From: Candidatus Omnitrophota bacterium
GTDB lineage: Bacteria > Omnitrophota > Gorgyraeia > Gygaellales > JAMWDD01
Direction of reading: 5' to 3'
Length of the DNA: 64,000 bases
Assembly (NCBI GenBank): GCA_028717645.1
Contig: JAQUNK010000001.1
Span: forward strand, 4,184-68,183
In this document: positions 18,050-64,000 of the stretch, piece by piece
Position numbering within the stretch: position 1 is the first letter of the stretch
Layout: the number at the start of each line of letters is the position of its first letter
Made by a program: the position numbers and the translations under genes
The notes under the pieces: generated by a model
Database searches by the model: none
The model's input: only the letters and a program-made list of their open reading frames with translations
What the model was told of the DNA's origin: nothing

Positions 18050-18673
18050 ATGGACTTATCCCATATTTTTAAATCCAAAACCCGCCAGGCCCTTCTGAAG
18101 CTATATTTCTGTGATTCAGATTCCTCTTACTATCTTCGAGAACTAGAACGTATTTTAGACATCCCGGTAAGCATGATCCATAAAGAGCTCTTAAGGCTAA
18201 AAGAAGAAGGGAGCTTTTTATCCATAAAGAAAGGCAACCGCAGTTATTTTTATATCAATAAATCATACCCGCTTTTCGATGAACTCAAGAATATTGTGCG
18301 TAAAACCATAGGTATCGAAGGGATAATCGAAGATGCCTTAAAAAAGATAGAAGGCATAGAAAGCGCGTATATTTACGGTTCTTTTGTTAAAAACAAAGCA
18401 AACCTGGCAAATGAAATCAACTTATTCATCATCGGCAAGCTTAGGGAGGATGTATTATCAAAAGAATTGGACTGTGTCCGGAAATTTGCAAAAAGAAAGA
18501 TCAGTTATAATCTGTATACCAAAGATGAGTTCAACAGAAAGATAGAGAAAGACTCATCCATACTTAATTTTATTAAAAGTCCCAAAATACCCCTTAAGAA
18601 CGAAAATGGCGCATATTGCGATAATAACGCCGCGAATTTTACTTATAAAAGTTTAAGGGCCGGCCATGTTTAA
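18050..18673 (+). CDS. Winged-helix DNA-binding protein fused to a degenerate nucleotidyltransferase-like domain. Putative locus regulator.
   Basis: The N-terminal wHTH (LRELERILDIPVSMIHKELLRLKEEG) resembles ArsR/MarR-type regulators. The central YGSF-x10-EIN matches the Pol-beta NTase hG[GS] ... DhD pattern, but with the acidic residues replaced. Confidence 0.5.
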   Translation: MDLSHIFKSKTRQALLKLYFCDSDSSYYLRELERILDIPVSMIHKELLRLKEEGSFLSIKKGNRSYFYINKSYPLFDELKNIVRKTIGIEGIIEDALKKIEGIESAYIYGSFVKNKANLANEINLFIIGKLREDVLSKELDCVRKFAKRKISYNLYTKDEFNRKIEKDSSILNFIKSPKIPLKNENGAYCDNNAANFTYKSLRAGHV

Positions 18674-19454
18674 ATTATTTTTAAACCGATTTAAGAAAGT
18701 ATATACATTCCGTCATGCTTTATTGGAAATGACCATAAAGCAGCTGAAGATAAAGTATGCCGGTTCTATGCTGGGGATCTGGTGGGCGGTAATTACACCT
18801 CTTATCCTTACGATGAGCATTTATTTTGTTTTTGAGAAAGTTTTTAAAGTAAATATTCCCCATAATGCATTCTTTATATTGGCGGGCATCATACCCTGGT
18901 TTTTCTTTTCTAATGCTCTTCAGGAAGCCGCAAATTCATTTATTGTCAATACACCTGTATTAAAACAGGGGATATTTCCCAGGGAACTTATCCCGATTTC
19001 AACGGTACTGGCAAATCTGCTGAATTTTCTAATAGGGCTTTGTGCGCTATTACCGTTTTTCATCTTTCTAAATATAAAGTCGTTGAACTCGCTGATCTTG
19101 TTGTTGCCTTTAATAGCATTTAATTTAATATTTATTTTGGGTCTGGGTATATTATTTTCTTGTATCAATATATTTTTTCGTGATTTTTCTCATTTTTTAA
19201 ATATCGCATTCTTGCCCTGGTTCTGGGTCACGCCGATATTCTATTCTCTGGATATGGTCCCTTTAAACCTACAGTGGATATGCAAAGCAAATCCCATGAC
19301 CTACTATATAAGTTCCTATCAAAGCATATTGATAAAAGCAGAAGCCCCGGCATTATTTACGATTTTAGTTTTGATATTTCTTTCCCTGGGTTCTTTTGTT
19401 ATTGGCTACCTATTTTTCATAAAAAATGAAAGCGTATTATTAAAAAGAGCATGA
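18666..19454 (+). CDS. wzm: ABC-2 type polysaccharide export permease (Wzm/TagG/KpsM family)
   Basis: The N-terminal IKQLKIKYAGSMLGIWWAVITPL is the ABC-2 signature. It has 6 TM helices. ATGA overlap with the ATPase gene. Confidence 0.85.
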   Translation: MFKLFLNRFKKVYTFRHALLEMTIKQLKIKYAGSMLGIWWAVITPLILTMSIYFVFEKVFKVNIPHNAFFILAGIIPWFFFSNALQEAANSFIVNTPVLKQGIFPRELIPISTVLANLLNFLIGLCALLPFFIFLNIKSLNSLILLLPLIAFNLIFILGLGILFSCINIFFRDFSHFLNIAFLPWFWVTPIFYSLDMVPLNLQWICKANPMTYYISSYQSILIKAEAPALFTILVLIFLSLGSFVIGYLFFIKNESVLLKRA

Positions 19455-22189
19455 ATACGATAATTGAATTTAATAATGTCTGGGAAAAGTATCGCGTGAA
19501 GTTTGTTAAGGATACGGATGTTTCCTGGGAAGAAGTTTGGGCCTTGCAGGACGTTAATCTTAAGATAGAGAAAGGTAAGATACTTGGGATTATCGGAGAA
19601 AACGGGGCAGGAAAGACGAGCCTTTTAAAATTGATCGCCGGCATGCTTATTCCGGATAAAGGTACCTTAAATATTTCTGGCAGGGTAGCTGCCTTAATGG
19701 AATTAGGCGCTGGTTTTAATCCGGAATTTACCGGTATAGAAAATATCAAGCTGAATGCAAGGATGTATGGCTTAAGCGAGAATGGCCTGGAAGAATGCTT
19801 AAAAAAGATCGTCGAATTCGCCGATATAGGTAAATTCATTTATGCGCCGGTAAAATACTATTCACAGGGTATGTATATGCGCCTGGCTTTTGCTTTAGCC
19901 ATATTTGTCGAGCCGGACATCCTTCTTATAGATGATATACTGGCTGTTGGCGACAAGGAAGCCCAGGCTAAATGCTTGAAAAAGATCAATGAGTTTAAAC
20001 AAATGGGCAGGACCATTATTTTAGTCAGCCATGACATGAATCTAGTGGGTAGTTTTTGCGATCGCGCTGTTCTTTTAAAGCAGGGCAAGGTCATACAGGA
20101 TGGCCCTCCGGAAAAGGCAATTTCTTCTTATATAGAAAGGGAAACAAGCAAAGACGGGCAGGCATTATTAAAAAAAGAAAGATTTAATTTCATATTTAAT
20201 AATGGTTGCATGAATTTGTCTTGCTCGGATATGCTTATAACTAAAGGCAATAACAGCACTTTTTCTTTCTTTGTACCCAAATTTAACTCTTGGTTCTGTT
20301 CTAGCGATCTCTATTGGACAACAGGAACTTCGTCCGACAGCAGTGTTAACGCCGTAGGTCGTTCCCTCGATGGGAATTTTAAACAAGCCTGGAATATCAA
20401 GGCTACAGAGGGAAACATCGTATTTCGAATAGAGACAGAAGGGGAATCAGCAGAAAAATGCTTTAATTTCTTTGTAATACCTATTTATGATAAATGGTTC
20501 ACATTGAATGAAGGAGGGCGCTTTCCTCCGTATATGCATAGGGTCAATTGGCAAGATATAGGCCTAACTAGTTTTCCTGAGAATTTTATAGGGTTGTGTT
20601 CTGCTGCGAAGGAACATGGCTTTCCCGTTATAATCTTTGAAGCAAATGATGAAGAGTCAAAAATACGGCTTTTAAACAGCGGCAGCGAGTTGGAATCAAG
20701 GATCATTCAGGTACAAACCAACAAAAATGCCTTATCGATTGGAACAAAGATCATATTTACGGAAAAAGATTTAGAAGAATATTTAAAAGTAAAAAAAGAT
20801 GCTTTTTTTCTGAAGCAAAAAGCCGAAGAAGAAAAAGCCTTGTTAGAGCAGAATGCTGAAAGAAAAAAATCTATACCCCGAAGAACCGTGTCTTCTGGAA
20901 AATTGAGCGTTTTTGCGGATGCAGAAGGCAGGTTGATCAGGCTTTATCATAACGGTAAAGAAATCACTGGCCCGGGGATGGGTATAAGTACGCCGTTTCC
21001 CATGATTTCATCCCAGTGGGGGATCAAAAAAATATCTGAAGAAGAAATGGTTGTCGAAATTCCCCGCGAAAATATGCTGGAAATATGGTCTTTATCCTGC
21101 AAGCAAGATACCCTCCAGATAAAGGTTGAGCTGGAAATAACAAAACCCATATCTTTGGTCCAAAAATTCATAAGCCTGGAACTAATAGACGAATATGCGA
21201 ATTGGAATACGGCCTATGAATCGGGAGAATTTTTAGTAAATCAATATGTAAATGATATGGGGCCGGTGAGATTAAAAGATGATAGGGTTTCGGAAGTGGC
21301 GGTTAAGCCAAAAAATAATTGCAATTTTACAACCCTGAACTTCGAGGCTGCGGATGACCAGAATAAGAAGATTTTGGGTATTTTTAAAAAAAGGAATTTA
21401 TACGGAGAATCTATTTATCTGACTTTTTCTCAGAATATTCCAGGTAGCGAACATTTTGTTGATCAGGGTAGGCGTCTTTATTTTGAAGGCAGGATTATTT
21501 TCGACAAAAAAGAAATTACGCCTAAAGAAAGGGCAGCCAGTGATGTCGCTGAATTCAGCGGGAAAAAGTTGAAATTAGCATTAGAAAGAGGAATAGGCAG
21601 GATATACTGGCAGGAGAAAGAATTGACTTCCGGATTGGGTATCTTTAGTTCGTTGCGCCATAATGGGATCTGGCATGATTCATCGCGTGCAGAATGGAAA
21701 ATAATTAAAAAAGATAAAGATAGGATTATTGTTTTTGGGGAGTGGATAAATATCCCGATTACGCAAAAATGGGATATAAAGCTAATAGACGATTCTTTGG
21801 TCTCCTGGAATGTAGATGTAGAAACCTTAAAGGAAATCTCTTTGGATATATCACAGGTTAATATTATGCTTTCTTCCGAATTCAGGCATTGGATGGCCCC
21901 CGGATCAAACCAGGGAGACTTTGCCGATGAATACCCCGAGCATTACGATATCCTTCCTTTCAGGTTCTGGTATGGACAAGCAAAAGAGATCGTATCTTTT
22001 GGAGAAAATTTACCCAGGGTTATTTTCAAGAATAATACAGATAGCGATTTTACCCGCGCCATTATAGAAAATAGCGATTATTTATATAAATCCAGATTAA
22101 TACAGTATCAAAAAACAAATAGCAAAAAATCTAATTCCGGGGATCACTATTATTTTAACGGAGCGATAAAAATTGAAAATAGCCCGTAA
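19451..22189 (+). CDS. wzt: Polysaccharide export ABC transporter ATP-binding protein (Wzt/TagH-like) with a roughly 680-aa C-terminal extension containing repeated beta-rich modules
   Basis: Walker A GENGAGKTS, signature YSQGMYMRLAFALA and Walker B LLIDDILAVGD, with Asp where Glu is expected. Two to three internal roughly 100-aa repeats follow the NBD. Confidence 0.85.
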   Translation: MNTIIEFNNVWEKYRVKFVKDTDVSWEEVWALQDVNLKIEKGKILGIIGENGAGKTSLLKLIAGMLIPDKGTLNISGRVAALMELGAGFNPEFTGIENIKLNARMYGLSENGLEECLKKIVEFADIGKFIYAPVKYYSQGMYMRLAFALAIFVEPDILLIDDILAVGDKEAQAKCLKKINEFKQMGRTIILVSHDMNLVGSFCDRAVLLKQGKVIQDGPPEKAISSYIERETSKDGQALLKKERFNFIFNNGCMNLSCSDMLITKGNNSTFSFFVPKFNSWFCSSDLYWTTGTSSDSSVNAVGRSLDGNFKQAWNIKATEGNIVFRIETEGESAEKCFNFFVIPIYDKWFTLNEGGRFPPYMHRVNWQDIGLTSFPENFIGLCSAAKEHGFPVIIFEANDEESKIRLLNSGSELESRIIQVQTNKNALSIGTKIIFTEKDLEEYLKVKKDAFFLKQKAEEEKALLEQNAERKKSIPRRTVSSGKLSVFADAEGRLIRLYHNGKEITGPGMGISTPFPMISSQWGIKKISEEEMVVEIPRENMLEIWSLSCKQDTLQIKVELEITKPISLVQKFISLELIDEYANWNTAYESGEFLVNQYVNDMGPVRLKDDRVSEVAVKPKNNCNFTTLNFEAADDQNKKILGIFKKRNLYGESIYLTFSQNIPGSEHFVDQGRRLYFEGRIIFDKKEITPKERAASDVAEFSGKKLKLALERGIGRIYWQEKELTSGLGIFSSLRHNGIWHDSSRAEWKIIKKDKDRIIVFGEWINIPITQKWDIKLIDDSLVSWNVDVETLKEISLDISQVNIMLSSEFRHWMAPGSNQGDFADEYPEHYDILPFRFWYGQAKEIVSFGENLPRVIFKNNTDSDFTRAIIENSDYLYKSRLIQYQKTNSKKSNSGDHYYFNGAIKIENSP

Positions 22190-24548
22190 TATCCATAAAT
22201 TCATAAAATACACTGGAACCGGTGGTTTATCTTATGCCTTTAGGCGAAGCATCGAGTATTTTATATTTTTGTCAAAAACCAGCTTTAGTCATCCGGGTCA
22301 GCGCATGGCGCAATGCACGGCAATCAGTTATGGCAGGATGAGATTGTCTTTTACAGAAAAATGGACGAATATTTTATGGAATGATCATCAAATAGCGAAA
22401 TTAAATACCAGCATCGAAACGCTGGGCCTCTCGATCGATTCTACTAAGGCCCGCTGGGATATCCTGGAGAAAAGCAGCAATTGCCTTAGATTAAGGTTAT
22501 CTTTCGAAGAGCTACCTCTGGCCCAGGTATGGTCTTTAAAAATAAATAACGAAAAAGAGATCAGTTGGAATATTGATCTAGAACTTTACGATTGGGTAAA
22601 TTTAGATGAATTTAGGGTGTTGCTTTTAACAAATACAAATTGTAAAAGCTGGTTTGTAGGTTTCGAAGAAGGCAATTTTATAAAACCGGATAATAATTGG
22701 CATCAGTTATATTTAAATGACCGTATCTCTGATTTGATAGGTGCCAAATTCACAGAAGGTAGCCCTTTGTCTTCTTTGGCTTTTAAGGTGGAAAATAAAG
22801 AGGCACTGCCTCTTGTGCAGAGTGCGCCGCAAAGTATGCCGGCTAACATTTTGGGTTTTAGGCTAAAGAATTTTATCCAGAACAAAGAATTTACTTCAGA
22901 ACGTTATAATTTATTCTCAGGAAATATACTTTTGTTCCAAGACGACCTCTTTTTAGATAAAAAGATAGAAAAGTCCCGCCAGGCTTATTTTTCTAATAAT
23001 TTCAATAAAATTCAAGCCGCAGAGGAAAAAAGTTTAAAAATAATTTTAACAAACCTTCCTTGGCAGAGGGATTATAAGTGGGGCGTAAGGGCAGGTTCCC
23101 GCTGGCCGCATATCAAAGACGATAGCGAACGGGATTATTTACCTTATCCGTTCTTTCTTGGCTACGCAGCTTCTTTATTAAAAAAGCATAACTTTGATAA
23201 TGTAGAATTGATCGATGCAATAGCCCAGCAACTTAGCGAAGGCGTATTTTTAAACAGGATCTTAGACAAAGATTGTGATTATTTGGTAGCCGAGACATCG
23301 ATACCTTCTTTCTGCGAAGACCTGAAACTATTGGAAAAAATCCATACATCCGGCATAAAAATAATCCTCTGCGGCCCTAATTCAGAGATCTATAAGAAAG
23401 AGTTTTTGGAAAACCATTCATTTATAGACTTTGTTCTGTTCGGCGAATATGAATTTACGCTTTTAGAATTGGTAGAATCATTACAGAAGGGAAAACAATT
23501 ATCCGGGATAAAAGGCCTTATATACAGAGAAGGGAACAATATTGTTAAAAATCCCAGAAGGGAATTGGCAAGTTTGGATCTTCTGCCTTGGCCGGAACGG
23601 GAAGATCTGGGTATGGATAGGTATCTGGATTTACCCGGGGGCATACCTTTTCCTTCCGCCCAAATGATTGCTTCCAGGGGTTGTCCTTTTGGATGCAATT
23701 TTTGCCTTTGGCCGCAGATTATCTATCAGGGTAACCAATATAGGGTAAGGAACATAACAGATGTCGTAGATGAAATGGAGTACCTGCTTGTAAAAAAAGG
23801 GTTTAAATCGGTTTATTTTGATGACGATACATTTAATATCGGCAAAGACAGGATGCTTGGGCTCTGCAGGGAGATCAAAAAGAGAAAACTAGAAAAGTTC
23901 CCCTGGGCAATAATGGCAAGGGCCGATTTAATGGATAAGGATATTTTGGAAGAAATGAAATCTGCAGGCCTGCAGGCCGTTAAATACGGCGTAGAGACGC
24001 ATAACCACAAGTTCATTAAGTACTGCAATAAAGGTCTGGATGTGGATAAGAATACCGAGATGATAAGATTAACAAAACGTTTAGGGATCAAGACGCACCT
24101 TACATTCACTTTTGGATTCCCTGGAGAAACAGAAGAAACGATCATGGATACCATACGTTATGCCTTGAGCCTGGAACCCGATTCGGTACAGTTTTCTATT
24201 CTTACGCCTTTTCCGGGAACAGCATTTTTTGAAGAACTGAAAAGCAAAGACATGATCTTAACAAGCGATTGGTCTAAGTACGACGGCCATGATGGCAGTG
24301 TTTTGAGGCACGATAACCTTACTTCCCGGGATCTGGAAAATGCAAAGAAAAAAGCATATTTATTATGGGCGGAGCAAAAAAGAAGGAAAAGAGGTATCTT
24401 GGGGGACGTGCTGAAGTTCAATGAACATTTAAGCCAATATGGGTTCAGCCGTACCCTCAACAAAACATTAGATTACCTGATATTCACCTTTTTTAAAAAG
24501 AAAAAAATATTGAACAAAGAAGATTTAAAATTAATATCAACCAACTAG
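22173..24548 (+). CDS. Class-B (B12-binding domain) radical SAM protein whose N-terminal domain is homologous to the Wzt C-terminal repeat
   Basis: B12-binding-like Rossmann segment (KIILCGPNSEIY ... LFGEYEF) and the radical SAM cluster motif ASRGCPFGCNFC (C-x3-C-x2-C). The N-terminal roughly 150 aa align with the Wzt repeats. Confidence 0.8.
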   Translation: MKIARNIHKFIKYTGTGGLSYAFRRSIEYFIFLSKTSFSHPGQRMAQCTAISYGRMRLSFTEKWTNILWNDHQIAKLNTSIETLGLSIDSTKARWDILEKSSNCLRLRLSFEELPLAQVWSLKINNEKEISWNIDLELYDWVNLDEFRVLLLTNTNCKSWFVGFEEGNFIKPDNNWHQLYLNDRISDLIGAKFTEGSPLSSLAFKVENKEALPLVQSAPQSMPANILGFRLKNFIQNKEFTSERYNLFSGNILLFQDDLFLDKKIEKSRQAYFSNNFNKIQAAEEKSLKIILTNLPWQRDYKWGVRAGSRWPHIKDDSERDYLPYPFFLGYAASLLKKHNFDNVELIDAIAQQLSEGVFLNRILDKDCDYLVAETSIPSFCEDLKLLEKIHTSGIKIILCGPNSEIYKKEFLENHSFIDFVLFGEYEFTLLELVESLQKGKQLSGIKGLIYREGNNIVKNPRRELASLDLLPWPEREDLGMDRYLDLPGGIPFPSAQMIASRGCPFGCNFCLWPQIIYQGNQYRVRNITDVVDEMEYLLVKKGFKSVYFDDDTFNIGKDRMLGLCREIKKRKLEKFPWAIMARADLMDKDILEEMKSAGLQAVKYGVETHNHKFIKYCNKGLDVDKNTEMIRLTKRLGIKTHLTFTFGFPGETEETIMDTIRYALSLEPDSVQFSILTPFPGTAFFEELKSKDMILTSDWSKYDGHDGSVLRHDNLTSRDLENAKKKAYLLWAEQKRRKRGILGDVLKFNEHLSQYGFSRTLNKTLDYLIFTFFKKKKILNKEDLKLISTN

Positions 24549-24562
24549 CATTTATTTCTGAT

Positions 24563-25813
24563 ATGGGATCTGAAGAAAAAAACATATTTACGAATATTAA
24601 AAAAGCATTACGATACATAAATTCCGGTAATTTATTTAATGATTACTGGGATATTGTAGGTATCTACAATGGCGAGTATGCCTTTACTGGCCCTTCCCAT
24701 GTGCAGATCGATTTGACATACAATTGTAATAATAATTGTATTGCCTGCTGGTGCAACTCTCCGCTTTTGGAAGAAAAAACATTGAGCGAAGCAAGGAGGA
24801 CGCAAACCCTGCCTTTGGGATTAGTCAAGAAATTATTAGACGACCTATCTGGCATGGGCACGCGGGAAATTTATTTTTCAGGCGGTGGCGAACCCTTTAT
24901 CCATCCTGCTATTATAGAAATTTTGGAGTATGCCAAGAAAAAGAAATTCATATGCTATGTAAATACTAATTTTACGTTAATCAATAGAGAGATAGCAAAG
25001 AAGATCATAGATTTAGGCATTGAGCATCTTACTGTAAGCACCTGGGCAGCTAGCCCCGGAACTTATGCCCTTACTCATCCCAATAAGAGTGAAAACACCT
25101 TTTTAGAGATACTGAAAAACTTGAAATATATGAATGAGCTTAAAGCCATTAATCCAAAGATCAAATTATACAATGTTATTTTTAATCTTAATTATCATGA
25201 ATTAAAAGATATGATCAGATTGGCGGGAGAGACTAAATCGGAATATGTAGAATTTACTTTAGTAGATACAATACCGGGTAAGACCGATAAGCTTCTTTTG
25301 GATTACAGGCAGATAAAAGAATTACAGGATATGGCTAATGAGGTTTACCGGGCCATGGATGCCGAAGGAAGCTATGGAGCGGTAAAAATATTGAATTTTG
25401 AATCATTTTTAAGGCGGATTTCTTCCGTCTCTGACCTGGCCAAGGCCACTTATGACCGCAACATCATAGATAGTATGCCTTGCTACATAGGCTGGAATTT
25501 CAGCCGGATCATGCCTAACGGTGATGTGAATGCCTGTTTGAAGGCGCATCGATTTCCCGTAGGGAATCTTTACCAAGAACGCTTTAAAAAAGTTTGGAAC
25601 GGAGAGAGGCAGCGTTATTTTCGTAAGAAAGCATTGGCCTGCGAGAAAAAAGATCCGTTTTTTAAACTTATAGGCAATGACCCTGAAACAAAAGAAGCCG
25701 GCTGTTATAAGAGCTGCGACGACTTATGCAGGAATTTACATATTCATAGCCGGATAAAATTATTAACTAAATTTAAGCAAAAGATCGTTAAGGCATTGTC
25801 CCGCTTAAAATAG
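24563..25813 (+). CDS. Radical SAM protein with a C-terminal SPASM/twitch-type Cys-rich domain
   Basis: Cluster motif YNCNNNCIAC plus a GGGEP-like FSGGGEPF. The C-terminal cysteines (CYIGWN ... NACLKAH ... CEKKD ... GCYKSCDDLC) fit auxiliary Fe-S sites. Confidence 0.75.
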   Translation: MGSEEKNIFTNIKKALRYINSGNLFNDYWDIVGIYNGEYAFTGPSHVQIDLTYNCNNNCIACWCNSPLLEEKTLSEARRTQTLPLGLVKKLLDDLSGMGTREIYFSGGGEPFIHPAIIEILEYAKKKKFICYVNTNFTLINREIAKKIIDLGIEHLTVSTWAASPGTYALTHPNKSENTFLEILKNLKYMNELKAINPKIKLYNVIFNLNYHELKDMIRLAGETKSEYVEFTLVDTIPGKTDKLLLDYRQIKELQDMANEVYRAMDAEGSYGAVKILNFESFLRRISSVSDLAKATYDRNIIDSMPCYIGWNFSRIMPNGDVNACLKAHRFPVGNLYQERFKKVWNGERQRYFRKKALACEKKDPFFKLIGNDPETKEAGCYKSCDDLCRNLHIHSRIKLLTKFKQKIVKALSRLK

Positions 25814-25823
25814 CTGAATAAAA

Positions 25824-27413: not shown

Positions 27414-27418
27414 AGAAT

Positions 27419-28594
27419 ATGCGGATACTTCTTATCCATCCACATGATATTTTTTCTCCCTCTGAGCCTTGGACAAGGCGGATAAGGGCCTTTGCGAAAG
27501 AATTTACAAAGAGCGGGCACGAGGTGAAGCTTGTTTATTTTCCTTCAGCCGATTCCAATACCGGTAATAAGGAGCCAGCTTTTCCCGTCGGTTACGAAGT
27601 CATATCTTTGAGCCGTTCGCAATCGCCGGTAATTTTTATTAAAAATATTATTGAAATTACGAAATTAGCCAAATGGTCCGACGTAGTCCATTTTCAGAAA
27701 TGCCATCATTATGCAGCTCTACCGGCCGTCATAGCTTCTTATATTACGGGCAAACATTTACATTACGACTGGGATGATTGGGAAGAGCAAATATGGTATG
27801 AATCGTGCGGTGAGAGTGCGCACTCTTTATTTATCGGTTCTTTTTTTAAAATCCTGGAAAGGGTCCTGCCGTTATTATCCGATACTCTTTCCGTGTCGAG
27901 TAGTTGCTTAAGAGATCTGGCACTAGGATTTGGTGTAAGCGAAAAAAATATTTATCTTGCTCCGGTGGGAGCGGATCCAGAAGAATTCGATCTCAATTTA
28001 GATGGCAGCGAGATAAGAAAAAAATATAATATCGCCTCGCCTCTGATTTTATATGTAGGGCAGCTTCATGGCGCCCAGTACATAGATTTATTTATCAAGG
28101 CGGCGAATATTATCCTGCATAATGAACCAGGTGTTAAATTTATGATCGTGGGGAAAGGATTCATGGAAGAGTCTTTGAAGAGATTGACTTTTGAATTGGG
28201 GATAAACGATAAGGTCATATTTACCGGATCGGTCCCCCATGATGAAATCCCTCAATATATTGCCGCAGCCGATATTTGTGTGGCGCCTTTTAAAGATACA
28301 AAGGCTGTCCGCTGTAAAAGCCCTTTAAAAATAGTTGAATATATGGCTATGGGTAAGCCGGTAGTTGCTAGCTCTGTGGGCGAAGCAAGAATTATGCTGG
28401 GCGGAGTAGGGGTTATGGTTTCACCCGGAGATTACCGCGCCCTCGCGGGCGGGATCTCGAGGCTGCTTAAGGACAATGTTTTAAAAGAAAATTTAGGGAT
28501 ATTCGCTCGTAAAAGAATAGAAAAAAAGTACAATTGGCGCAATATTTCTAGTTGCTTGGTGGCCGCATATAAGAACAATGCAGCCGAACAATAA
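27419..28594 (+). CDS. Glycosyltransferase family 4
   Basis: GT-B fold with FMIVGKG ... EYMAMGKPVVASSVGEA ... G. Confidence 0.8.
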   Translation: MRILLIHPHDIFSPSEPWTRRIRAFAKEFTKSGHEVKLVYFPSADSNTGNKEPAFPVGYEVISLSRSQSPVIFIKNIIEITKLAKWSDVVHFQKCHHYAALPAVIASYITGKHLHYDWDDWEEQIWYESCGESAHSLFIGSFFKILERVLPLLSDTLSVSSSCLRDLALGFGVSEKNIYLAPVGADPEEFDLNLDGSEIRKKYNIASPLILYVGQLHGAQYIDLFIKAANIILHNEPGVKFMIVGKGFMEESLKRLTFELGINDKVIFTGSVPHDEIPQYIAAADICVAPFKDTKAVRCKSPLKIVEYMAMGKPVVASSVGEARIMLGGVGVMVSPGDYRALAGGISRLLKDNVLKENLGIFARKRIEKKYNWRNISSCLVAAYKNNAAEQ

Positions 28595-28610
28595 AGATCG
28601 ATAAGGGTAT

Positions 28611-50554: not shown

Positions 50555-50562
50555 AAGCACCT

Positions 50563-52173: not shown

Positions 52174-52175
52174 AT

Positions 52176-52799: not shown

Positions 52800-52806
52800 T
52801 CCATTT

Positions 52807-54357: not shown

Positions 54358-54381
54358 GCAGGTCATTTAAAACAGTTAAAG

Positions 54382-57325: not shown

Positions 57326-58566
57326 TGAATATGAGAATTATACCGCGAAAAACAGTTAATGTATCTTTGGAGGAATTCAGGGCCGCAGTAAACGCATTGG
57401 CCAAAAATCAATGCGTAACCGGTCCGCAAATAGAGTTATTCGAGAAGCAATTTGCCGGTTATATAAATGCCAAGTATGCCATAGCTGTTTCTTCAGCGCG
57501 ATTGGGGATCTGGGCGATATTTAAAGCCCTGGGTTATTCCGCAGGAGATGAGGTCATAGTTTCTTCATTTAATTTTTCAGTTATCCCGGATCTGTTGAGA
57601 TCCATGGGGCTTAATCCCGTATTCGTTGACATAGACCCGGATACTTACAATATAAATGTAGCGGGCATAGAGAAAAAAATCAGCCCAAAGACAAAGTACA
57701 TATTGATAACCCATATGTACGGCCAGCCTTGCGATCTGGCCCCTATTCTTGATATTGCAAAAAAATACAACCTGAAAGTAATCGAAGACTGCGCTCATGC
57801 GTGTGGTTCGGAATACAAGAGCAAGAAAGTCGGTTCTTTCGGGGATGCGGCCTGTTTCAGTTTCGGCATAGGCAAGGCCATGGTTACTTTTGGCGGAGGT
57901 ATGGTTACCGTCAATAGCCAGGAATTATATAATAGTATAAAAGATATAGTTGCAGGTTCCAGGATGTTGTCCGGAAGCGAAGCGGTTAAGAAAATATTTT
58001 TGGGCTTCATTCTGGCGTATTCGACTAAAAAATTCGCTACGTACTTACTTTATCCTTTGAATTTGATCACTGATATGTTAGGCCATGACCTTGAAGAACT
58101 CCTGGATAAAGCCTTTTTACACGAAGAAGATTTCTCAAACTATAAAGTAAAGTTTACGAATATTCAGGCATCGATAGGCATTGAGCAATTAAAGAAGATC
58201 GAGCGCTTAAACAGCATAAGAATAACGAATTCCGAGAATCTTACAAAGGGTTTATCCGTTTTTGGCGGCATAAAAGTCTTTAAAGTGCTGGATGAAGTTA
58301 AGCATACTTACTTATATTATCCGCTAAGAGTACCTGCTCCTAAAAAGTTAAAAAGGTTTTTGTTGAGAAAAGGTATCGATATAAAAATAAGCAGCCAGAA
58401 GAATTGTTCTTGCCTAGACCCTGGCCGCGAGCCTAAAGATGAATATGTATATGCAGATTCTGTCAGCAATAAGGTCATAGAATTACCGAATTCCTATAAT
58501 TTGAATAAGAAAGATATAGATTATATCATCAGGGCGATAGGCGATTTTTCCGTAAAAGAAAATTAG
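57322..58566 (+). CDS. DegT/DnrJ/EryC1/StrS-family PLP-dependent sugar aminotransferase
   Basis: FEKQFAGYINAKYAIAVSSARLG ... GDEVIVSSFNF, with the PLP-lysine region CFSFGIGKAM. Confidence 0.8.
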   Translation: MMNMRIIPRKTVNVSLEEFRAAVNALAKNQCVTGPQIELFEKQFAGYINAKYAIAVSSARLGIWAIFKALGYSAGDEVIVSSFNFSVIPDLLRSMGLNPVFVDIDPDTYNINVAGIEKKISPKTKYILITHMYGQPCDLAPILDIAKKYNLKVIEDCAHACGSEYKSKKVGSFGDAACFSFGIGKAMVTFGGGMVTVNSQELYNSIKDIVAGSRMLSGSEAVKKIFLGFILAYSTKKFATYLLYPLNLITDMLGHDLEELLDKAFLHEEDFSNYKVKFTNIQASIGIEQLKKIERLNSIRITNSENLTKGLSVFGGIKVFKVLDEVKHTYLYYPLRVPAPKKLKRFLLRKGIDIKISSQKNCSCLDPGREPKDEYVYADSVSNKVIELPNSYNLNKKDIDYIIRAIGDFSVKEN

Positions 58567-58591
58567 GCCCAGGCATAGCCGCCAGGTAAAT

Positions 58592-59980
58592 ATGAAAAAA
58601 ATACTGCTATTGAACCCTCCGGGGGAAAATTATTTCATAAGGGATTATTACTGCAGCCAGGTATCTAAGGGTGATTACTATTGGCCGCCCCTGGATCTAT
58701 TGGTTTTGAGCGGTTTATTCAGGGATAAATTTGAAGTGTGTGTCCTGGATGCGTTGGCGCAGAGGATAGATAAGGCCGGTGCATACAGTTTTATAAATAA
58801 AATAAACCCGGATTTTATAATTTGTTTGGCTGGTGCGGCATCCTGGGAGCAGGATATAGGGTTCCTTGGGGAATTGAAGAAAATAAACAGGGCCGCGGTT
58901 ATTTTGTCCGGAGATTATCCTTTGGCCTACCCGAAAGAAATAATCGAAAAGTATCCTTTTGTAGACGCTATCTTATTGGATTTTACTGACAGCGAAATAG
59001 AGCTTTTTATCCGCGGCGTGCGCAATGATTCATTGAAAAATATCTTTACCAGGTCTGATACGGCAGACCCAGAGCTTGTCAGCCGGGATAATTTTTCCAT
59101 TGCTGTCCCGCAGCACAGTCTTTTTACATCAAGGCTATATAACTTACCGCATATCTACTACCATCCTTTTGCTACTATAATGACCGACTTTGGTTGCCCT
59201 TATCACTGCACCTTTTGTTCATATGAGCGGATCAAGTATAAGATGCGCGATATGGGAAATATCGCTGAAGAAGTAGATTACATAATATCTTTGGGGATAA
59301 GGGAACTATGGCTCAGGGACCAGAGCTTTGGTTCTGCAAAAGACCACGCCTTTGATTTTTGCAGCCTATTAGAAAATAAGGGCAGAAAGTTCTCCTGGAG
59401 CTGCGAAATGCGCGTTGATGCCGTTAGCGAAGAACTTTTAAATAAGATGGCTGCATGCGGATGCCATACGATCATGTTAGGAGTAGAAACTGCCAGCCAA
59501 AAAGTATTAGATATGCATAAAAAAGGTATTACCCTGGAACAAACCAAAGCAGCTTTTAAAATCGCCAAAAAGGCCAAGGTCAGGACGCTGGCCCATTTCA
59601 TATTCGGCTTAAACGGAGAGAATTTATTGTCGCAGGAAAAACTTATAGATTTTTGTTTGTCTCTTGAGCCGGACTTTGCTTCTTTTAATGTAGCTAATCC
59701 TTTGTGGAACACGACATTCCGCGAAGAAGCTACGAGAAATAAATGGTTGCTGGGAGAGGGCGTAAGCGTAGACGCATCCTGTTCTTTTCCCGTCTGGGAA
59801 AATGATATATTAAAACGTTCCGATATCTGGTCCATGAGAAAGGCGGCCCTGCAAAGGTTTTATTTCAGGCCAGCTTATGTCTGGAGGCAGATGCGGGATG
59901 TAAAGACAGGGTATCAGCTGCGTACATTAATAAAAGAAGGCGCACACTTAACCAGGGATCTGATTTTTAAAAAACAATAA
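58592..59980 (+). CDS. Class-B (B12-binding domain) radical SAM protein
   Basis: N-terminal B12-binding-like domain. The cluster motif is MTDFGCPYHCTFC. Confidence 0.8.
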   Translation: MKKILLLNPPGENYFIRDYYCSQVSKGDYYWPPLDLLVLSGLFRDKFEVCVLDALAQRIDKAGAYSFINKINPDFIICLAGAASWEQDIGFLGELKKINRAAVILSGDYPLAYPKEIIEKYPFVDAILLDFTDSEIELFIRGVRNDSLKNIFTRSDTADPELVSRDNFSIAVPQHSLFTSRLYNLPHIYYHPFATIMTDFGCPYHCTFCSYERIKYKMRDMGNIAEEVDYIISLGIRELWLRDQSFGSAKDHAFDFCSLLENKGRKFSWSCEMRVDAVSEELLNKMAACGCHTIMLGVETASQKVLDMHKKGITLEQTKAAFKIAKKAKVRTLAHFIFGLNGENLLSQEKLIDFCLSLEPDFASFNVANPLWNTTFREEATRNKWLLGEGVSVDASCSFPVWENDILKRSDIWSMRKAALQRFYFRPAYVWRQMRDVKTGYQLRTLIKEGAHLTRDLIFKKQ

Positions 59981-59992
59981 TTCTATTTTTCG

Positions 59993-61330
59993 ATGAATAT
60001 ATTATTAATTAACCCCCAGTTTAAAAAGACCGAAAAAGCTTATCCTTTAGGGCTGGGGTACCTTTCTTCGGTGCTGAAAGAAAAAGGGCATACCGTCCGG
60101 GGGCTGGACCTTTCAATGGCCACTATCGAAGAAGCCGTTGGCCTTGTAAATAAAAATAATATAGGATTAGCCGGCATGTCCGTTATTTCTTCTAATTCAG
60201 GGCAGGTAATAAAGTTGATCGAGTATTTTAAGAGCAGATGCCCTATCCCGATAGTTGTGGGCGGCCCCCATGCAACTATAACCAGGGACGCATTTATGAA
60301 ATTAGCACCTTCAGACTTTCTCGTAGAAGGAGAAGGAGAATCAACTATTTTAGAATTGGCAGAAGCGATCGAAGCCGGTAAGGACGTAGCTGGTATCCGC
60401 GGGCTGGTTTGGAGAAAGGGAAGAGAAATCGTCACCAATGAAAATAGGCAGGAAGTCGAGAACCTTGATTCTTTGCCTTTCCCCGATAGAAAGGCCTTTC
60501 CTTTATTGGATTATAAGGGCATGGTTACCAGAGAAAGAAATTATACCCAGATAATTACAAGCAGGGGATGTCCGCATAGCTGCCTTTATTGTCCGGAATC
60601 GAGTTTATGGAAGTGCTGGAGAAGGCGTTCTCCTAGGAATGTAGTGGATGAGATGGAGCTTATTTTCAAAGAATATAATATTAGAGAATTTCATATCGAA
60701 GATGCGAATTTTTTCGGTAGAGATCCAGGCAGGATAAGGGCTATATGCAAAGAGATATTAGATAGAAATTTAAAAATATCATGGCAATGTACCAATGGCA
60801 TACCGCTTTTAGAATTGCAAGATAATATAGATATGTTAGATATCATGGCAGAAGCAGGCTGTTACAGCATATCTTTAGGCGTAGAATCATTCGATGAAAA
60901 AATACGTAATTCCATGAAGAGGCGGGGCGACCTCAAGGCGATCCCGGAGATCGTTAAGCAGTGCAAGAAAAATAGGATAGAGATCAATTGTTATCTTATT
61001 ATCGGGTTCCCGCAGCAGACGTTGAGCCAAGTTAAGAGGGATATTTTAATTTCACACGGTTTTAATTTTGATTTTACCCATTTTTCCATATTTCAGAATA
61101 TCGCCGGATCAAAAATAGAATATTTACGTAAAACGGACAATCTTAAAAATGGAGATACCGGTATTAACCGTTTTTTCATTAAAATAATACAAAGATTGGC
61201 ATATATTTCCCTGTGTTTAAATCCGGCGGTCATTATTTTTATTTTTAGGCGGTTATCGCATACGAAAAGGCCGGGGATTATTTTTAACAAAGCCTGTAGC
61301 TATATTTTCGGGGACCATCTCGCAAATTGA
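59993..61330 (+). CDS. Class-B (B12-binding domain) radical SAM protein
   Basis: IVVGGPHATITRDAF ... EGEGE, with cluster motif TSRGCPHSCLYC. Confidence 0.8.
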   Translation: MNILLINPQFKKTEKAYPLGLGYLSSVLKEKGHTVRGLDLSMATIEEAVGLVNKNNIGLAGMSVISSNSGQVIKLIEYFKSRCPIPIVVGGPHATITRDAFMKLAPSDFLVEGEGESTILELAEAIEAGKDVAGIRGLVWRKGREIVTNENRQEVENLDSLPFPDRKAFPLLDYKGMVTRERNYTQIITSRGCPHSCLYCPESSLWKCWRRRSPRNVVDEMELIFKEYNIREFHIEDANFFGRDPGRIRAICKEILDRNLKISWQCTNGIPLLELQDNIDMLDIMAEAGCYSISLGVESFDEKIRNSMKRRGDLKAIPEIVKQCKKNRIEINCYLIIGFPQQTLSQVKRDILISHGFNFDFTHFSIFQNIAGSKIEYLRKTDNLKNGDTGINRFFIKIIQRLAYISLCLNPAVIIFIFRRLSHTKRPGIIFNKACSYIFGDHLAN

Positions 61331-61351
61331 CGACAGTGCCTTAAGGGCCAT

Positions 61352-62530
61352 ATGAAGATCAAAATGAGAAGATTGCTAAGTAAGTTATCAAAGATAGTTG
61401 TTTTTATCTTTTTATTCAAATTCGTCTTAAGGATCATTCCCGCTTTTTCAGACCAGGCGCTCGAACCCAAGAAGGCTGGTCCGAACCTCATTGTAGTTAA
61501 GAACCCGCATTTTTTGCCAGAATCGGATCAGGCCAAGATCGTTTCTTCCAGTGTCTCTATAGTAAAGGGATTCGATCTGTATGCCATGACTAAACAGGCC
61601 ATAGATCTAATAGGGGGTATGAAAAAAATAGTCAAGCCGGGTAACAAGGTATTCATTAAACCTAATTATATAACCGGCGGGCTCGATGGCCACGACCCGG
61701 TTATCGCCGGCGAAATATCCCATCCAGAAGTCGTTGCTTCTGTGGCTGAAGAATGTATCAAGGCAGGGGCCAAAGAAGTAATAATCGGAGAATGGGTGGA
61801 ACGCCCTCCTAAGATAAATTTTGCCGGAAAGCGGAACAGGGAGGGGGCCCAGGTCAAGGGATTGGTAGACCGGTTAAATAAAAAATATGGGCACAAGGTT
61901 TATTTAATAAATCTTATGGATCATACCACTTATTTTAGATACGTTCCTTCCAGGACAAAATTAAAATTTTTGGCAATTCCTAATATAGTCGCCGAAGCAG
62001 ATGTGATTATTTCTATCCCCTCCCTGAAGACGCACCATAAGCCTTCGCCGGTAAGTTTAGGTATGAAAAATTTCATGGGCATAATGCCGTCCCTATTCTA
62101 CGGTGAGCCGCGATATAAACTCCATGAGGCAGGTGTGCACCAGGTGATCGTAGATATAAATAGAGCCCTGAAGCCGGACCTGGTTGTGGTGAGCGGTGCT
62201 TTCGGAATGGAAGGCAAGGGCGCTTCTTTATTTCTGGGAGGTAAGGCAGTGGATGTCAGCCAGCGCATAGGGGCATTTTTAGTCATTGCCGGGACTGACC
62301 CTGTAGCTACGGATGCTACGGCTACGCGCCTGATCACAAAAAACTGGGAACCGGTCCCGGATAATTTTAATTTGGGCACTCCCTGGTATGTCCATCATCT
62401 TCGGATGGCCTGTGAACAGGGCTTGGGACTTATTGATAAATCAAGAATAAATATAATGGGCGAGAAGCTGGAAGATCTACAGATGAATTGGGAAACCTCC
62501 AATGATGGCGTATATCCAGAGATACCTTAA
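61352..62530 (+). CDS. DUF362 domain protein with an N-terminal membrane anchor
   Basis: VFIKPNYITGG ... HPEVVASVAEECIKAGAKEVIIGE fits the DUF362 core. No ferredoxin-type Cys cluster is present. Confidence 0.6.
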   Translation: MKIKMRRLLSKLSKIVVFIFLFKFVLRIIPAFSDQALEPKKAGPNLIVVKNPHFLPESDQAKIVSSSVSIVKGFDLYAMTKQAIDLIGGMKKIVKPGNKVFIKPNYITGGLDGHDPVIAGEISHPEVVASVAEECIKAGAKEVIIGEWVERPPKINFAGKRNREGAQVKGLVDRLNKKYGHKVYLINLMDHTTYFRYVPSRTKLKFLAIPNIVAEADVIISIPSLKTHHKPSPVSLGMKNFMGIMPSLFYGEPRYKLHEAGVHQVIVDINRALKPDLVVVSGAFGMEGKGASLFLGGKAVDVSQRIGAFLVIAGTDPVATDATATRLITKNWEPVPDNFNLGTPWYVHHLRMACEQGLGLIDKSRINIMGEKLEDLQMNWETSNDGVYPEIP

Positions 62531-63437
62531 GGTATCAATAAGTGTTTTTTTATTTTCGATATTAATAAATAATAGCCAGGCGCTTTCATATGGCTTGATC
62601 GCCGATGCTTTGGCAGCTAAAGGGCAGTGGGTAAAGGGCGTTGTCGCCGATAGAAAAGCGGTTATAGCCAGGGAAAGCGGGGCAATATCAGAAATAGAAA
62701 TCCAGGTTCCCCGGCAGGGGCGCTACAATCTTCTTGTCTATGTCTATCATAATTGGAAGAAATTTTCACCCTGCATCTATGTAGAAGCAGTGGATTCTGA
62801 AGGTAAAAAGCATTTTGGTTCGCATAGGATCGAAAACTGCTGGTATCTAAAGGAGCCGGGCCAGGGCCGCTGGTTTATGGTTAGCTTAAGCGATAACCCG
62901 TGGTGGGTGCTGCCGAAAGGGAATTTGACTATCAGGTTCTGGGCCAAGGGCTGTGCCCTGGATGCCGGCAAGGGGACAGAAGTCCCTATGGAAGGGGATA
63001 TAGCAATAGAACGATTCTTTCTTGTTCCAGTGGTGGATGAGCTTGCCGTGAGCATAATTAATCCTGAATCAACATCCGGCGGCTGGGGATTCTCATATTA
63101 CGACAAAAATTACCAGACAGGATATATATTCACGGATAAGAAAAATTCATTGAATTCATATGCTATCAAAGTTCCTTTTTCCGGGTATTATCAGGTTTAT
63201 TTGTCACTTCTTTCTCTTGATCCGTCAGCCCTGGATATAGGGATAAGCAACGGCCGCATTGCCAAAAATGCCAGGGTCGTTGTAAAGCCTGAAAAAGAAT
63301 GGGGCCTGGTGGTTACGGAGCCTTTATTTTTAAATAAGGGAGAGTATACCCTGTCACTTAAAAATGTTGAAGCGAAACGTGTACTTTTAGATTATTTGTT
63401 ATTATTGCCGTTTATTGAAAAGAACTCGATAAAATGA
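62502..63437 (+). CDS. Secreted hypothetical protein built from two beta-rich repeats (possible carbohydrate-binding modules)
   Basis: Signal peptide followed by two roughly 140-aa halves with a similar alternating hydrophobic pattern (YNLLVYVYHNW ... NLTIRFWAKG and YYQVYLSLLSL ... EYTLSLKNVE). Confidence 0.4.
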   Translation: MMAYIQRYLKVSISVFLFSILINNSQALSYGLIADALAAKGQWVKGVVADRKAVIARESGAISEIEIQVPRQGRYNLLVYVYHNWKKFSPCIYVEAVDSEGKKHFGSHRIENCWYLKEPGQGRWFMVSLSDNPWWVLPKGNLTIRFWAKGCALDAGKGTEVPMEGDIAIERFFLVPVVDELAVSIINPESTSGGWGFSYYDKNYQTGYIFTDKKNSLNSYAIKVPFSGYYQVYLSLLSLDPSALDIGISNGRIAKNARVVVKPEKEWGLVVTEPLFLNKGEYTLSLKNVEAKRVLLDYLLLLPFIEKNSIK

Positions 63438-63476
63438 TGAAAGTTTTCCATAAAAATTTGGTCTATTTAAGAAAAA

Positions 63477-64000
63477 TGTTATTTCTTCTTTATATTTTTG
63501 CCTCCAGGGGTAGATTTATCGCAATTAGCATAAATCTGCTATATTTTGCCTTCCATAAGGCCCGGCCGCCGTTTATGCCATCGTTCATACAAATAGAGCC
63601 GACCAATATCTGCAATCTTTCGTGTTCTTTGTGCCCATGCGGCAACGGCCAGCTTACAAGGCCTAAGGGCAACATGCCGTTCCATACTTTTAAAAGTTTT
63701 CTGGATAAAAATCACGGCAACTTAGCCTTCATAGTATTTTACAATATGGGCGAACCCTTTCTTAACGAAGAGATCTTTAAGATGATCAATTATGCTGTTT
63801 CAAAAAAAATATTTGTTAAGATAAGTACAAACGGCCTGTTTAAAGACAAAGATACCGTTAAAAAAATTGTTGATTCAGGATTGGATGAGTTACTGATAAG
63901 CCTAGATTTTATAGACCGGGAAAGCTATAAATTATTCAAGGGAAAAGACAATTTCGATGAGGTTAAGTCTAATGTCTCCATGTTGTTAAAAGAGAGAGGC
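63477..64000 (+). CDS. Radical SAM protein, 5' portion. The gene continues past the window end.
   Basis: Open frame to the window edge with cluster motif EPTNICNLSCSLC (C-x3-C-x2-C) and YNMGEPFL (GGEP-like). Missing from the ORF track because no stop is reached. Confidence 0.7.

Follow-up and report, generated by a model that had tools for sequence, protein, structure and literature searches.

A Wzm/Wzt surface-glycan locus rich in radical SAM enzymes in a Candidatus Omnitrophota bacterium

Why should a locus for the export of a surface glycan encode fourteen radical S-adenosylmethionine (SAM) enzymes? Radical SAM chemistry on sugars has been described for a few antibiotic and hopanoid pathways and is not known as a systematic part of surface polysaccharide assembly. 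The question arose from a stretch of 64,000 nucleotides of a Candidatus Omnitrophota bacterium (GenBank assembly GCA_028717645.1, contig JAQUNK010000001.1, positions 4,184 to 68,183 of the forward strand), here called the window, in which an earlier note, made from the letters alone, had described Wzm/Wzt exporter genes of the ATP-binding cassette (ABC) type followed by 14 radical SAM genes. All open reading frames (ORFs) of at least 100 aa in the window were translated and scanned against Pfam. The region is very likely an ABC-transporter-dependent (Wzm/Wzt) surface glycan locus, and its product is probably a polymer like the O-antigen of lipopolysaccharide. The explanation favoured here, given a probability of about 0.6 on the sequence evidence, is a Wzm/Wzt glycan pathway into which radical SAM enzymes would be built at two levels. 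The locus is real and conserved, an apparently undescribed variant of the ABC-transporter-dependent glycan pathway, of which the radical SAM enzymes seem an integral part.

All 14 proteins matched PF04055 significantly (E of 1e-12 to 5e-27) and each holds exactly one CX3CX2C motif, as the earlier note had claimed. They lie between 22173 and 64000 and account for 14 of the 35 genes of the cluster, which is far beyond chance when radical SAM genes are taken as ~2% of all genes (binomial P ~1e-15; the 2% share is our own assumption). The region 18666-64000 is coding at a density of ~100%, the widest intergenic gap being 124 bp at a divergent promoter. It is not an assembly artefact, because independent contigs tile it in the same order. 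Three Logan contigs of run SRR22315506 cover 19864-29473, 32379-51621 (19,243 bp compared, of a contig of 22,178 bp) and 52099-64000 at 99.98-100% identity, and the sole uncovered junction between them falls within an unbroken ORF. A block of genes on the minus strand (32696-43884) lies wholly inside one independent contig (L086), and shorter contigs from two further runs and one metagenome-assembled genome (MAG) at NCBI likewise match the window. A chimeric assembly, which the earlier note had said would refute its reading, was thereby ruled out.

The answer turns on the exporter and on the genes directly behind it, in which GT denotes a glycosyltransferase family and Ndom an N-terminal domain described below:

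18666-19454, plus strand: Wzm, an ABC-2 permease with five hydrophobic segments (PF01061, E=1.5e-16)
19451-22189, plus strand: Wzt ATPase, 912 aa (PF00005, E=4e-20; nucleotide-binding domain at aa 7-235)
22173-24548, plus strand: class-B-type radical SAM protein, 791 aa (Ndom, B12-like domain, radical SAM core)
24563-25813, plus strand: SPASM-type radical SAM protein, 416 aa (PF04055 and PF13186)
25824-27413, plus strand: class-B radical SAM protein, 529 aa, with a transmembrane-like C-terminal tail (PF02310 and PF04055)
27419-28594, plus strand: GT4 (Pfam)
28611-29711, plus strand: GT4 (Pfam)
29681-30556, plus strand: GT2 (Pfam), the end of the conserved core

The genes for Wzm and Wzt overlap by 4 bp, and the nucleotide-binding domain of Wzt matched the O-antigen Wzt structures of Aquifex (6amx/7k2t) at E=1.4e-67. 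The remainder of Wzt (residues 236-912), like residues 1-290 of the 791-aa radical SAM protein, gave no Pfam match even at E<=5; the jelly-roll family Wzt_C (PF14524) did not match Wzt. The extension had only five sequence homologs among 5.8 billion proteins. One weaker match was to the N-terminus of a fused radical SAM homolog, and Wzt was therefore compared with the radical SAM protein encoded next to it. By BLASTP, Wzt aa 456-589 resemble aa 41-169 of the 791-aa protein (E=2e-12), and Wzt also aligns to the N-terminus of the fused homolog (E=2e-17, with a second copy at 9e-5). A hidden Markov model (HMM) made from the N-terminal 285 columns of the alignment of the 791-aa family then placed three tandem copies of this domain, Ndom, in Wzt: at aa 237-421, 462-684 and 699-907 (nt 20159-20713, 20834-21502 and 21545-22171), with E-values of 3e-6, 9e-5 and 2e-22. 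In the 791-aa protein Ndom takes up aa 1-285 (nt 22173-23027); a B12-like domain comes next (about aa 300-490), and the CX3CX2C motif of the radical SAM core is at C504.

Ndom was then followed in 80 related loci, whose six-frame ORFs were labelled by BLASTP against the window proteins. Of the 22 Wzt ORFs that exceed 2 kb, 21 have at least one copy, and the Wzt proteins of related loci carry 2-5. A single N-terminal copy is present in 37 orthologs of the 791-aa enzyme, 2-4 N-terminal copies stand in SPASM radical SAM fusion proteins of 1100-1460 aa, C-terminal copies occur in class-B proteins of ~1030 aa, and the domain also forms stand-alone ORFs of ~255 aa. The radical SAM copy was modelled instead of the Wzt extension, because five homologs give no deep alignment. 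The AlphaFold2 model, made with a 65-sequence alignment, is an all-beta domain of about 18 strands with flanking helices (mean pLDDT 89.3, pTM 0.82); its predicted fold is the galactose-mutarotase-like supersandwich, of a carbohydrate-binding type. Trp, Tyr and Phe abound at its conserved positions, none of which is a His, and on that ground Ndom is read as a module that binds a ligand and does not catalyse mutarotation. We infer that it binds the lipid-linked glycan or the glycan terminus. The occurrence of one module in the exporter and in the first radical SAM enzyme hints at a coupling between export of the polymer and the radical chemistry performed on it.

The trio of radical SAM genes is conserved along with the exporter. 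Both the 791-aa protein and the 912-aa Wzt have identical counterparts in a MAG named Candidatus Omnitrophica bacterium at NCBI. More than 400 homologs of the 791-aa protein were found, some of them fused to a second radical SAM domain; the best 120 are full length, 43-54% identical and nearly all from Omnitrophota, and relatives occur in at least 504 genomes when one genome per species is scanned. In 24 related loci, among them loci from outside the Omnitrophota, the 416-aa type follows the 791-aa ortholog. All 31 Ndom-bearing orthologs with a close labelled downstream neighbour are followed by a radical SAM gene of the 416- or 529-aa type. The GT4-GT4-GT2 orthologs of relatives keep their order at 41-58% identity. 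The tail of the 529-aa protein is a separate transmembrane ORF of ~40 aa in three loci (L007, L009, L071). This ~40-aa family was considered as a precursor peptide and rejected, being the detached membrane tail.

The whole conserved core reads: a WaaL-like ligase, GT2, GT4, WecA-like enzyme and flavoprotein as one group, then Wzm, Wzt, the 791-, 416- and 529-aa radical SAM proteins, GT4, GT4 and GT2 (for example L006, L008, L011, L013, L024, L040, L052 and L071). Conserved synteny, for which the earlier note had suggested looking, was thus found, with radical SAM genes tied to glycan genes. In the window the first group lies apart from Wzm:

3971-5125, plus strand: GT4 (Pfam, NCBIfam)
5119-6102, plus strand: WecA-like polyprenyl-phosphate HexNAc-1-P transferase (PF00953, E=2e-32)
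6095-7387, plus strand: PRK07208/Glf-like flavoprotein (Pfam, NCBIfam)
7382-8476, minus strand: membrane protein resembling ligases of the WaaL/PglL type, with about 10 transmembrane segments (Wzy_C domain, PF04932, E=2e-16)
8499-9482, plus strand: GT2 (Pfam)
9479-10843, plus strand: PIG-L family de-N-acetylase (Pfam)
10819-18673: spacer with genes for a GNAT protein, an RlpA-like DPBB protein, an alpha/beta hydrolase, an HMGL-like protein, a KDPG aldolase, a DUF6268 protein, a thioesterase, a dCTP deaminase, a VanZ protein and a nucleotidyltransferase

About 8 kb of housekeeping genes (10819-18673) part this upstream half of the core from Wzm. In five relatives (L006, L013, L024, L040, L052) the GT4, WecA-like and flavoprotein genes stand directly upstream of Wzm; orthologs of the GT2 at 8499-9482 adjoin Wzm in L008, L030 and L039, and the ligase-like Wzy_C protein accompanies the core in L013, L030, L040 and L052. 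The WecA-like protein scored 74 bits against TIGR02380, the cut-off of which is 326. No Wzx-type match was seen in the Pfam scans of the window ORFs, and the Wzy_C protein is read as a ligase. The bounds of 18666-64000 set by the earlier note proved too narrow, since conserved pathway genes lie at 3971-10843 and at least 3 kb more follow past the window end.

The distal half of the locus is more variable, and most of its radical SAM genes stand among genes for sugar making, lipid loading and transfer:

30573-31910, plus strand: PRK07208/Glf-like flavoprotein (Pfam, NCBIfam)
31928-32680, plus strand: DPM1/AglJ-like GT2, polyprenyl-P-sugar-synthase-like (Pfam, NCBIfam)
32696-34234, minus strand: protein with 10 transmembrane segments (hydrophobic segments)
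34162-35280, minus strand: SPASM radical SAM protein, 372 aa (PF04055 and PF13186)
35277-36290, minus strand: GT2 (Pfam)
36283-37617, minus strand: flavoprotein (Pfam)
37575-39266, minus strand: near-orphan protein of 563 aa with 11 transmembrane segments (hydrophobic segments)
39317-40726, minus strand: class-B radical SAM protein (PF02310 and PF04055)
40758-42413, minus strand: PMT_2-like GT-C (PMT_2)
42379-43884, minus strand: class-B radical SAM protein (PF02310 and PF04055)
44009-45016, plus strand: short-chain dehydrogenase/reductase (SDR)
45013-46059, plus strand: SPASM radical SAM protein (PF13186)
46056-47084, plus strand: SPASM radical SAM protein (PF13186)
47088-48269, plus strand: GNAT protein
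48298-49782, plus strand: class-B radical SAM protein (PF02310 and PF04055)
49727-50554, plus strand: polysaccharide deacetylase with DUF3473
50563-52173, plus strand: membrane glycosyltransferase of GT-C fold
52176-52799, plus strand: class-I methyltransferase
52768-54357, plus strand: GT-C-like protein, a paralog of the 50563-52173 product
54382-55914, plus strand: class-B radical SAM protein (PF02310 and PF04055)
55892-57325, plus strand: class-B radical SAM protein (PF02310 and PF04055)
57322-58566, plus strand: DegT aminotransferase (closest to PseC and ArnB)
58592-59980, plus strand: AprD4-like radical SAM protein of class-B fold
59993-61330, plus strand: class-B radical SAM protein, 445 aa, with a transmembrane-like tail (PF02310 and PF04055)
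61352-62530, plus strand: DUF362 protein
62502-63437, plus strand: protein of 311 aa without a family
63434 or 63476 to 64000, plus strand: SPASM radical SAM protein, truncated by the window end
past the window end (on L001): PMT_2 GT-C (521 aa), ArnC/PgfS-like GT2 (255 aa) and HAD hydrolase

Of the two GT2 proteins that look like polyprenyl-P-sugar synthases, that at 31928 is similar to AglJ and Dol-P-hexose transferases and that just beyond the window is ArnC/PgfS-like (E~1e-36). The deacetylase comes nearest to that of the XrtA system and shows a weak likeness to ArnD. Six membrane proteins of 510-563 aa have 7-11 hydrophobic segments each, and every large polytopic membrane protein of the locus has a radical SAM gene alongside. 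PMT_2 matched two of the six, the 521-aa protein past the window end above its cut-off and the 551-aa protein below it; Pfam at relaxed E-values gave nothing for four membrane proteins. The predicted structure of the 536-aa protein has a GT-C fold, with Pmt4, STT3B, AglB and PglB as top structural matches and AftA, ArnT and ALG scoring similarly. The tally of glycosyltransferases is eight Leloir enzymes and at least four of the GT-C type. Apart from the radical SAM genes, every component named in the earlier note was recovered: Wzm/Wzt, GT2, GT4, GT-C, DPM1-like and Glf-like proteins, SDR, DegT, methyltransferase and deacetylase.

This half, too, has counterparts elsewhere. A metagenomic contig (L087/L088) holds a block of 12 genes that are orthologous to those at window positions 44009-59980 and keep their order (45-61% identity), with one extra gene for a 710-aa fusion of a GT2 with a SPASM radical SAM enzyme (L087:14682-16814; L088:10685-12817). 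The radical SAM part of the fusion is most similar to the 372-aa protein of the window, and the window counterparts of the fusion, the GT2 at 35277-36290 and the radical SAM gene at 34162-35280, are neighbours that keep this order, with an overlap of 4 bp. Among related loci of at least 15 kb, the number of radical SAM genes ranges from 1 to 13 (median 3), with a peak of 13 in 22 kb in L022. High radical SAM density is a trait of the lineage, and the window is unusual mainly for its nine class-B members.

Those nine had been described as class-B proteins with an N-terminal B12-binding domain. PF02310 (B12-binding) was significant in seven (25824, 39317, 42379, 48298, 54382, 55892 and 59993) and not in the proteins at 22173 and 58592, the latter giving a weak match (E=0.004). 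Both align across their B12-like and radical SAM regions to NCBIfam class-B models, covering positions 13-429 and 49-463 of the 472 of the HpnJ model. The class-B architecture therefore stands for all nine, and the N-terminal position does not for the 22173 protein, in which the extra 285-residue domain comes first. PF13186 (SPASM) matched four of the five remaining proteins (24563, 34162, 45013 and 46056). The window end truncates the fifth, and SPASM is present in the full-length version of 344 aa that an independent contig supplies. The start of this ORF had been placed at 63477 and is in fact at 63434 or 63476. The canonical full-SPASM motif CX2CX5CX3C was found in 0/5, with 6-9 downstream Cys residues, so that by sequence "SPASM/twitch-like", the wording already used, is the right level of claim. 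The class-B proteins are 22-31% identical to one another (n=9; one pair 40%) and the SPASM proteins 22-36%; low mutual identity marks the radical SAM genes as old, functionally distinct paralogs rather than recent duplicates.

The best NCBIfam family was HpnJ for five class-B proteins, BchE for two, a RiPP (ribosomally synthesised and post-translationally modified peptide) C-methyltransferase subfamily for the 529-aa protein and a ladderane-type B12 radical SAM family for one. The class-B equivalog families reached below cut-off were HpnJ, BchE, HpnR, PhpK, TsrM, KedN5, AprD4 and ladderane B12. AprD4 was also the closest solved structure for three proteins of class-B fold, followed by TsrM, TokK, CysS and OxsB. 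AprD4 is a sugar 1,2-diol dehydratase with a class-B-like fold that is not known to use cobalamin, and cobalamin use by the nine proteins is putative. The SPASM proteins weakly resemble PqqE, CteB, SkfB, GDGT-MAS, BlsE, DesII and BtrN. Reading the chemistry from NCBIfam or Protein Data Bank matches was given up: all are sub-threshold, and methylases are not separable from non-methylases. Multiple C-methylations, as the earlier note had proposed, are possible but not specifically supported, the nearest matches being non-methylating class-B-like enzymes (HpnJ, BchE, AprD4). The reactions could just as well be a dehydration or an AprD4-like deoxygenation, a ring contraction of the HpnJ kind, an epimerisation or an oxidation. 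Three radical SAM proteins have transmembrane-like segments, C-terminal in the class-B proteins of 529 and 445 aa and N-terminal in the SPASM protein of 344 aa.

The domains, the Wzm/Wzt context, the synteny and the fusions of radical SAM enzymes with Ndom and GT2 support the earlier proposal of a surface glycan pathway with radical tailoring. In outline, and going by enzyme families, a WecA-like enzyme would start the chain on polyprenyl phosphate, Wzm/Wzt would export the glycan and a WaaL-like ligase would join it to its final acceptor, while membrane-proximal radical SAM enzymes would edit the lipid-linked glycan before and alongside ABC export. At the first level, the core trio (791, 416 and 529 aa) would edit the polymer itself and the exporter would recognise the same glycan, provided that Ndom binds the lipid-linked glycan or its terminus; this would be analogous to the cap-dependent export of E. 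coli O9a and Aquifex. The second level would be a periplasmic decoration of the three-component Arn/Gtr type, encoded in the variable distal half. There the SDR, DegT and GNAT proteins would supply aminosugars with N-acyl groups, GT2 enzymes of the DPM1/ArnC kind would transfer sugars to polyprenyl phosphate, the deacetylase, the methyltransferase and 11 further radical SAM enzymes (several membrane-tethered) would tailor the sugars in the cytoplasm, and four to six GT-C enzymes would move the tailored sugars onto the exported glycan. The specific model of polymer-level radical editing coupled to export is offered tentatively, at even odds or somewhat less. Its fuller form, that Omnitrophota practise post-polymerisation radical (C-H) editing, with Ndom targeting radical SAM enzymes to the polymer and radical tailoring licensing export, is conceivable yet rather doubtful; Wzt would then reuse Ndom three to five times for substrate recognition, and the same editing may possibly extend, through the pair of 791- and 416-aa enzymes, to some DPANN and candidate phyla radiation (CPR) lineages.

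Three kinds of described systems were compared with the locus. In cap-dependent Wzt proteins, the nucleotide-binding domain is joined to a jelly-roll carbohydrate-binding domain, and the latter recognises a chemical cap at the end of the glycan (PMC9445017). The locus is like such O-antigen pathways (E. coli O9a with WbdD and the Wzt carbohydrate-binding domain, Aquifex aeolicus; PMC9445017, PMC3482155) in its Wzm, its Aquifex-like Wzt nucleotide-binding domain and C-terminal Wzt extension, putative WecA-type initiation, polymerising GT4 and GT2 enzymes, a ligase-like Wzy_C protein and a candidate modifying enzyme encoded beside the transporter. It differs in that Wzt bears three supersandwich modules of ~220 aa, not a jelly-roll domain of ~150 aa; the adjoining candidate modifiers are radical SAM enzymes, not a kinase/methyltransferase or Kdo transferase; and one of them bears the same module as Wzt. 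By analogy, cap dependence is putative here. Three-component glycosylation (GtrAB-GtrC; PPPRS/MATE/GT136 of Citrobacter, PMC11127046) and the Arn pathway to L-Ara4N share with the locus ArnC/PgfS/AglJ-like GT2 and GT-C enzymes, and the SDR, DegT, N-acyltransferase and deacetylase match the logic of ArnA/B/C/D/T. Unlike those systems, the locus has no recognisable flippase, has four to six GT-C genes, each flanked by radical SAM genes, and scores below the equivalog cut-offs. With the radical SAM sugar-tailoring enzymes AprD4, GenK, DesII, BtrN and HpnJ it shares the class-B-fold or SPASM/twitch-like architecture. These serve small-molecule antibiotics or hopanoid head groups with one or two enzymes per pathway, whereas here 14-15 divergent paralogs stand in a surface-polymer export locus. 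Full-text literature searches found no description of radical SAM-rich Wzm/Wzt or O-antigen loci; a 2026 preprint on Omnitrophota mentions hypervariable polysaccharide cassettes, not their radical SAM content. The earlier remark that so dense a system was undescribed thus holds for the literature and not for the window as a singular case, the density being lineage-wide.

Several findings weigh against the two-level pathway. No radical SAM protein reaches a curated NCBIfam cut-off (best class-B scores of 93-238 bits against cut-offs of 282-750), and for this reason their substrates are deduced from context. Ndom could alternatively serve the docking of proteins or their oligomerisation, or be catalytic in the manner of a mutarotase. 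No within-genome co-variation was found between the Wzt copies of Ndom and the radical SAM copy of the same genome (median rank 8-9.5 of 20), the Wzt copies being equally similar to the radical SAM Ndom of their own and of other genomes; this neither supports nor contradicts a ligand common to both. Two of the six large membrane proteins (512 and 563 aa) are without a detectable family, the latter having 10 relatives at E<1e-3 among 1.84 billion representatives, three of them at E<1e-30 with the query itself included. Pfam scans of the window ORFs found no flippase for polyprenyl-P-sugars of the GtrA, MATE or ArnEF type.

These points bear on what the radical SAM enzymes act upon and on where the glycan goes. 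They might act on soluble nucleotide sugars and so supply unusual monosaccharides to ordinary glycosyltransferases, Ndom serving for docking or oligomerisation only. Small sugars are indeed the substrates of DesII, AprD4 and GenK; among solved structures AprD4 gives the best match to three proteins of class-B fold, a DegT gene followed by an AprD4-like gene recalls the logic of DesI/DesII, SPASM proteins weakly match BtrN, DesII and BlsE, and most of the radical SAM proteins lack a membrane anchor. This is a live alternative but a less likely one, since Ndom has a predicted carbohydrate-binding-type fold and is duplicated in an exporter that handles polymer, GT2-radical SAM fusions exist, three radical SAM proteins carry transmembrane tails, and radical SAM genes adjoin GT-C genes throughout the locus. 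The radical tailoring itself would be unaffected if the acceptor were a protein, such as an S-layer or giant Omnitrophota surface protein, instead of lipid A. The Wzy_C domain, common to WaaL and PglL as a matter of family knowledge, would then mark a PglL-type O-oligosaccharyltransferase, and some GT-C proteins would be PMT- or oligosaccharyltransferase-like, in keeping with the PMT_2 matches, with Pmt4, STT3B, AglB and PglB at the top of the structural matches, and with the very large surface proteins that Omnitrophota encode. AftA, ArnT and ALG, with glycan or lipid acceptors, score similarly, however, the core synteny of WecA, Wzm and Wzt is typical of O-polysaccharide loci, and no acceptor protein gene lies in the locus; a protein acceptor appears quite improbable.

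Tailoring of a lipid (hopanoid, ladderane or membrane-spanning type) or of the polyprenyl carrier, with the glycosyltransferases making a glycolipid head group, is very improbable. HpnJ, ladderane B12 radical SAM and an HpnA-like SDR are among the best NCBIfam names, a KAS III gene stands beside one class-B radical SAM gene in L087, and genome mining with antiSMASH reported "ladderane" clusters in Omnitrophota (PMC9902471), which may be loci of the present kind. Against this, the Hpn and ladderane matches are 2- to 6-fold below curated cut-offs, Pfam scans found in the window no squalene-hopene cyclase, HpnCDE/H, isoprenoid or fatty-acid synthesis genes, and eight Leloir and at least four GT-C glycosyltransferases accompany a Wzt with a sugar-binding-type extension. 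Hardly any weight is given to a RiPP cluster in which the SPASM and class-B enzymes would mature a peptide, despite the family name of the 529-aa protein and the resemblance of the SPASM proteins to PqqE, CteB and SkfB. The coding density of ~100%, with no gap above 124 bp, leaves the earlier note's remark on missing precursor peptides in place; no PqqD or RRE match occurred on the proteins scanned with Pfam, and the conserved small ORFs of the 80 related loci are transmembrane peptides or anchors, not leader-core peptides.

The two-level pathway gives the question of radical glycan editing a conserved, phylum-wide and experimentally approachable set of parts: the 791/416/529 trio, Ndom and the Wzt repeats. 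Ndom is newly proposed as a module by which an exporter of the O-antigen type recognises carbohydrate, numerous orphan subfamilies of class-B and SPASM enzymes are flagged for enzyme discovery, and genome-mining tools may mislabel such loci as "ladderane" or "RiPP". If true, the fuller form of the model would mean a new logic by which glycan export through ABC transporters is quality-controlled, and at least a dozen radical chemistries on carbohydrates still to be explored. Omnitrophota are abundant nanobacteria, some of them host-dependent, and surface glycans are therefore probably central to their attachment to other cells.

Outside the Omnitrophota, the B12 and radical SAM core of the 791-aa enzyme (aa ~288-770) was seen at 47-58% identity, without the supersandwich Ndom and usually followed by a 416-type radical SAM gene. 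The copies come from a DPANN archaeon, Aminicenantes, Patescibacteria and Woese-/Nanoarchaeota MAGs (L023, L043, L044, L057 and L058); L044 is the complete DPANN genome of Archaeon GW2011_AR15 (CP010425.1), in which a Wzt-like gene and a GT4 lie near the 791/416 pair. The pattern suggests that ultra-small lineages of groundwater share the pair across domains. One homolog of the 791-aa protein (P0029, 1236 aa) contains intein/LAGLIDADG domains (PF14528, PF14890), which would place an intein inside a radical SAM enzyme of class B.

Two small membrane proteins recur in related loci. One is a single-transmembrane peptide of 52-63 aa ending in PFIY(A/T)LF, presumably DUF5989-like (L013:6381-6539, L015:15063-15242, L016, L026, L045, L055). 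The other, of 96-104 aa with two transmembrane segments, is encoded directly after wzt (L039:5163-5477, L040:10648-10938, L045, L047, L052) and occurs where the 791-aa ortholog is without an N-terminal helix. The DUF362 and 311-aa genes of the window are co-linear on independent contigs, between radical SAM genes; DUF362 proteins are often annotated as Fe-S binding, and it is a speculation that the two proteins deliver electrons to radical SAM enzymes.

Rfam and tRNA scans of the window found no cobalamin riboswitch and no other RNA. Beyond 18 kb, G+C falls from ~0.44 to 0.34-0.41, a drop commonly seen in variable cassettes for surface glycans. The window opens with an ordinary operon for the phosphate transporter PstSCAB of the ABC type (436-3953), unrelated to the glycan locus. 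In a second MAG of the same population (L083, GCA_028713695.1, contig JAQTNT010000072.1), contig positions 1-132 differ from window positions ~55226-55357, inside the class-B gene 54382-55914, and the match is 100% from 55358 on; the mismatch may be strain-level variation or a contig-end artefact.

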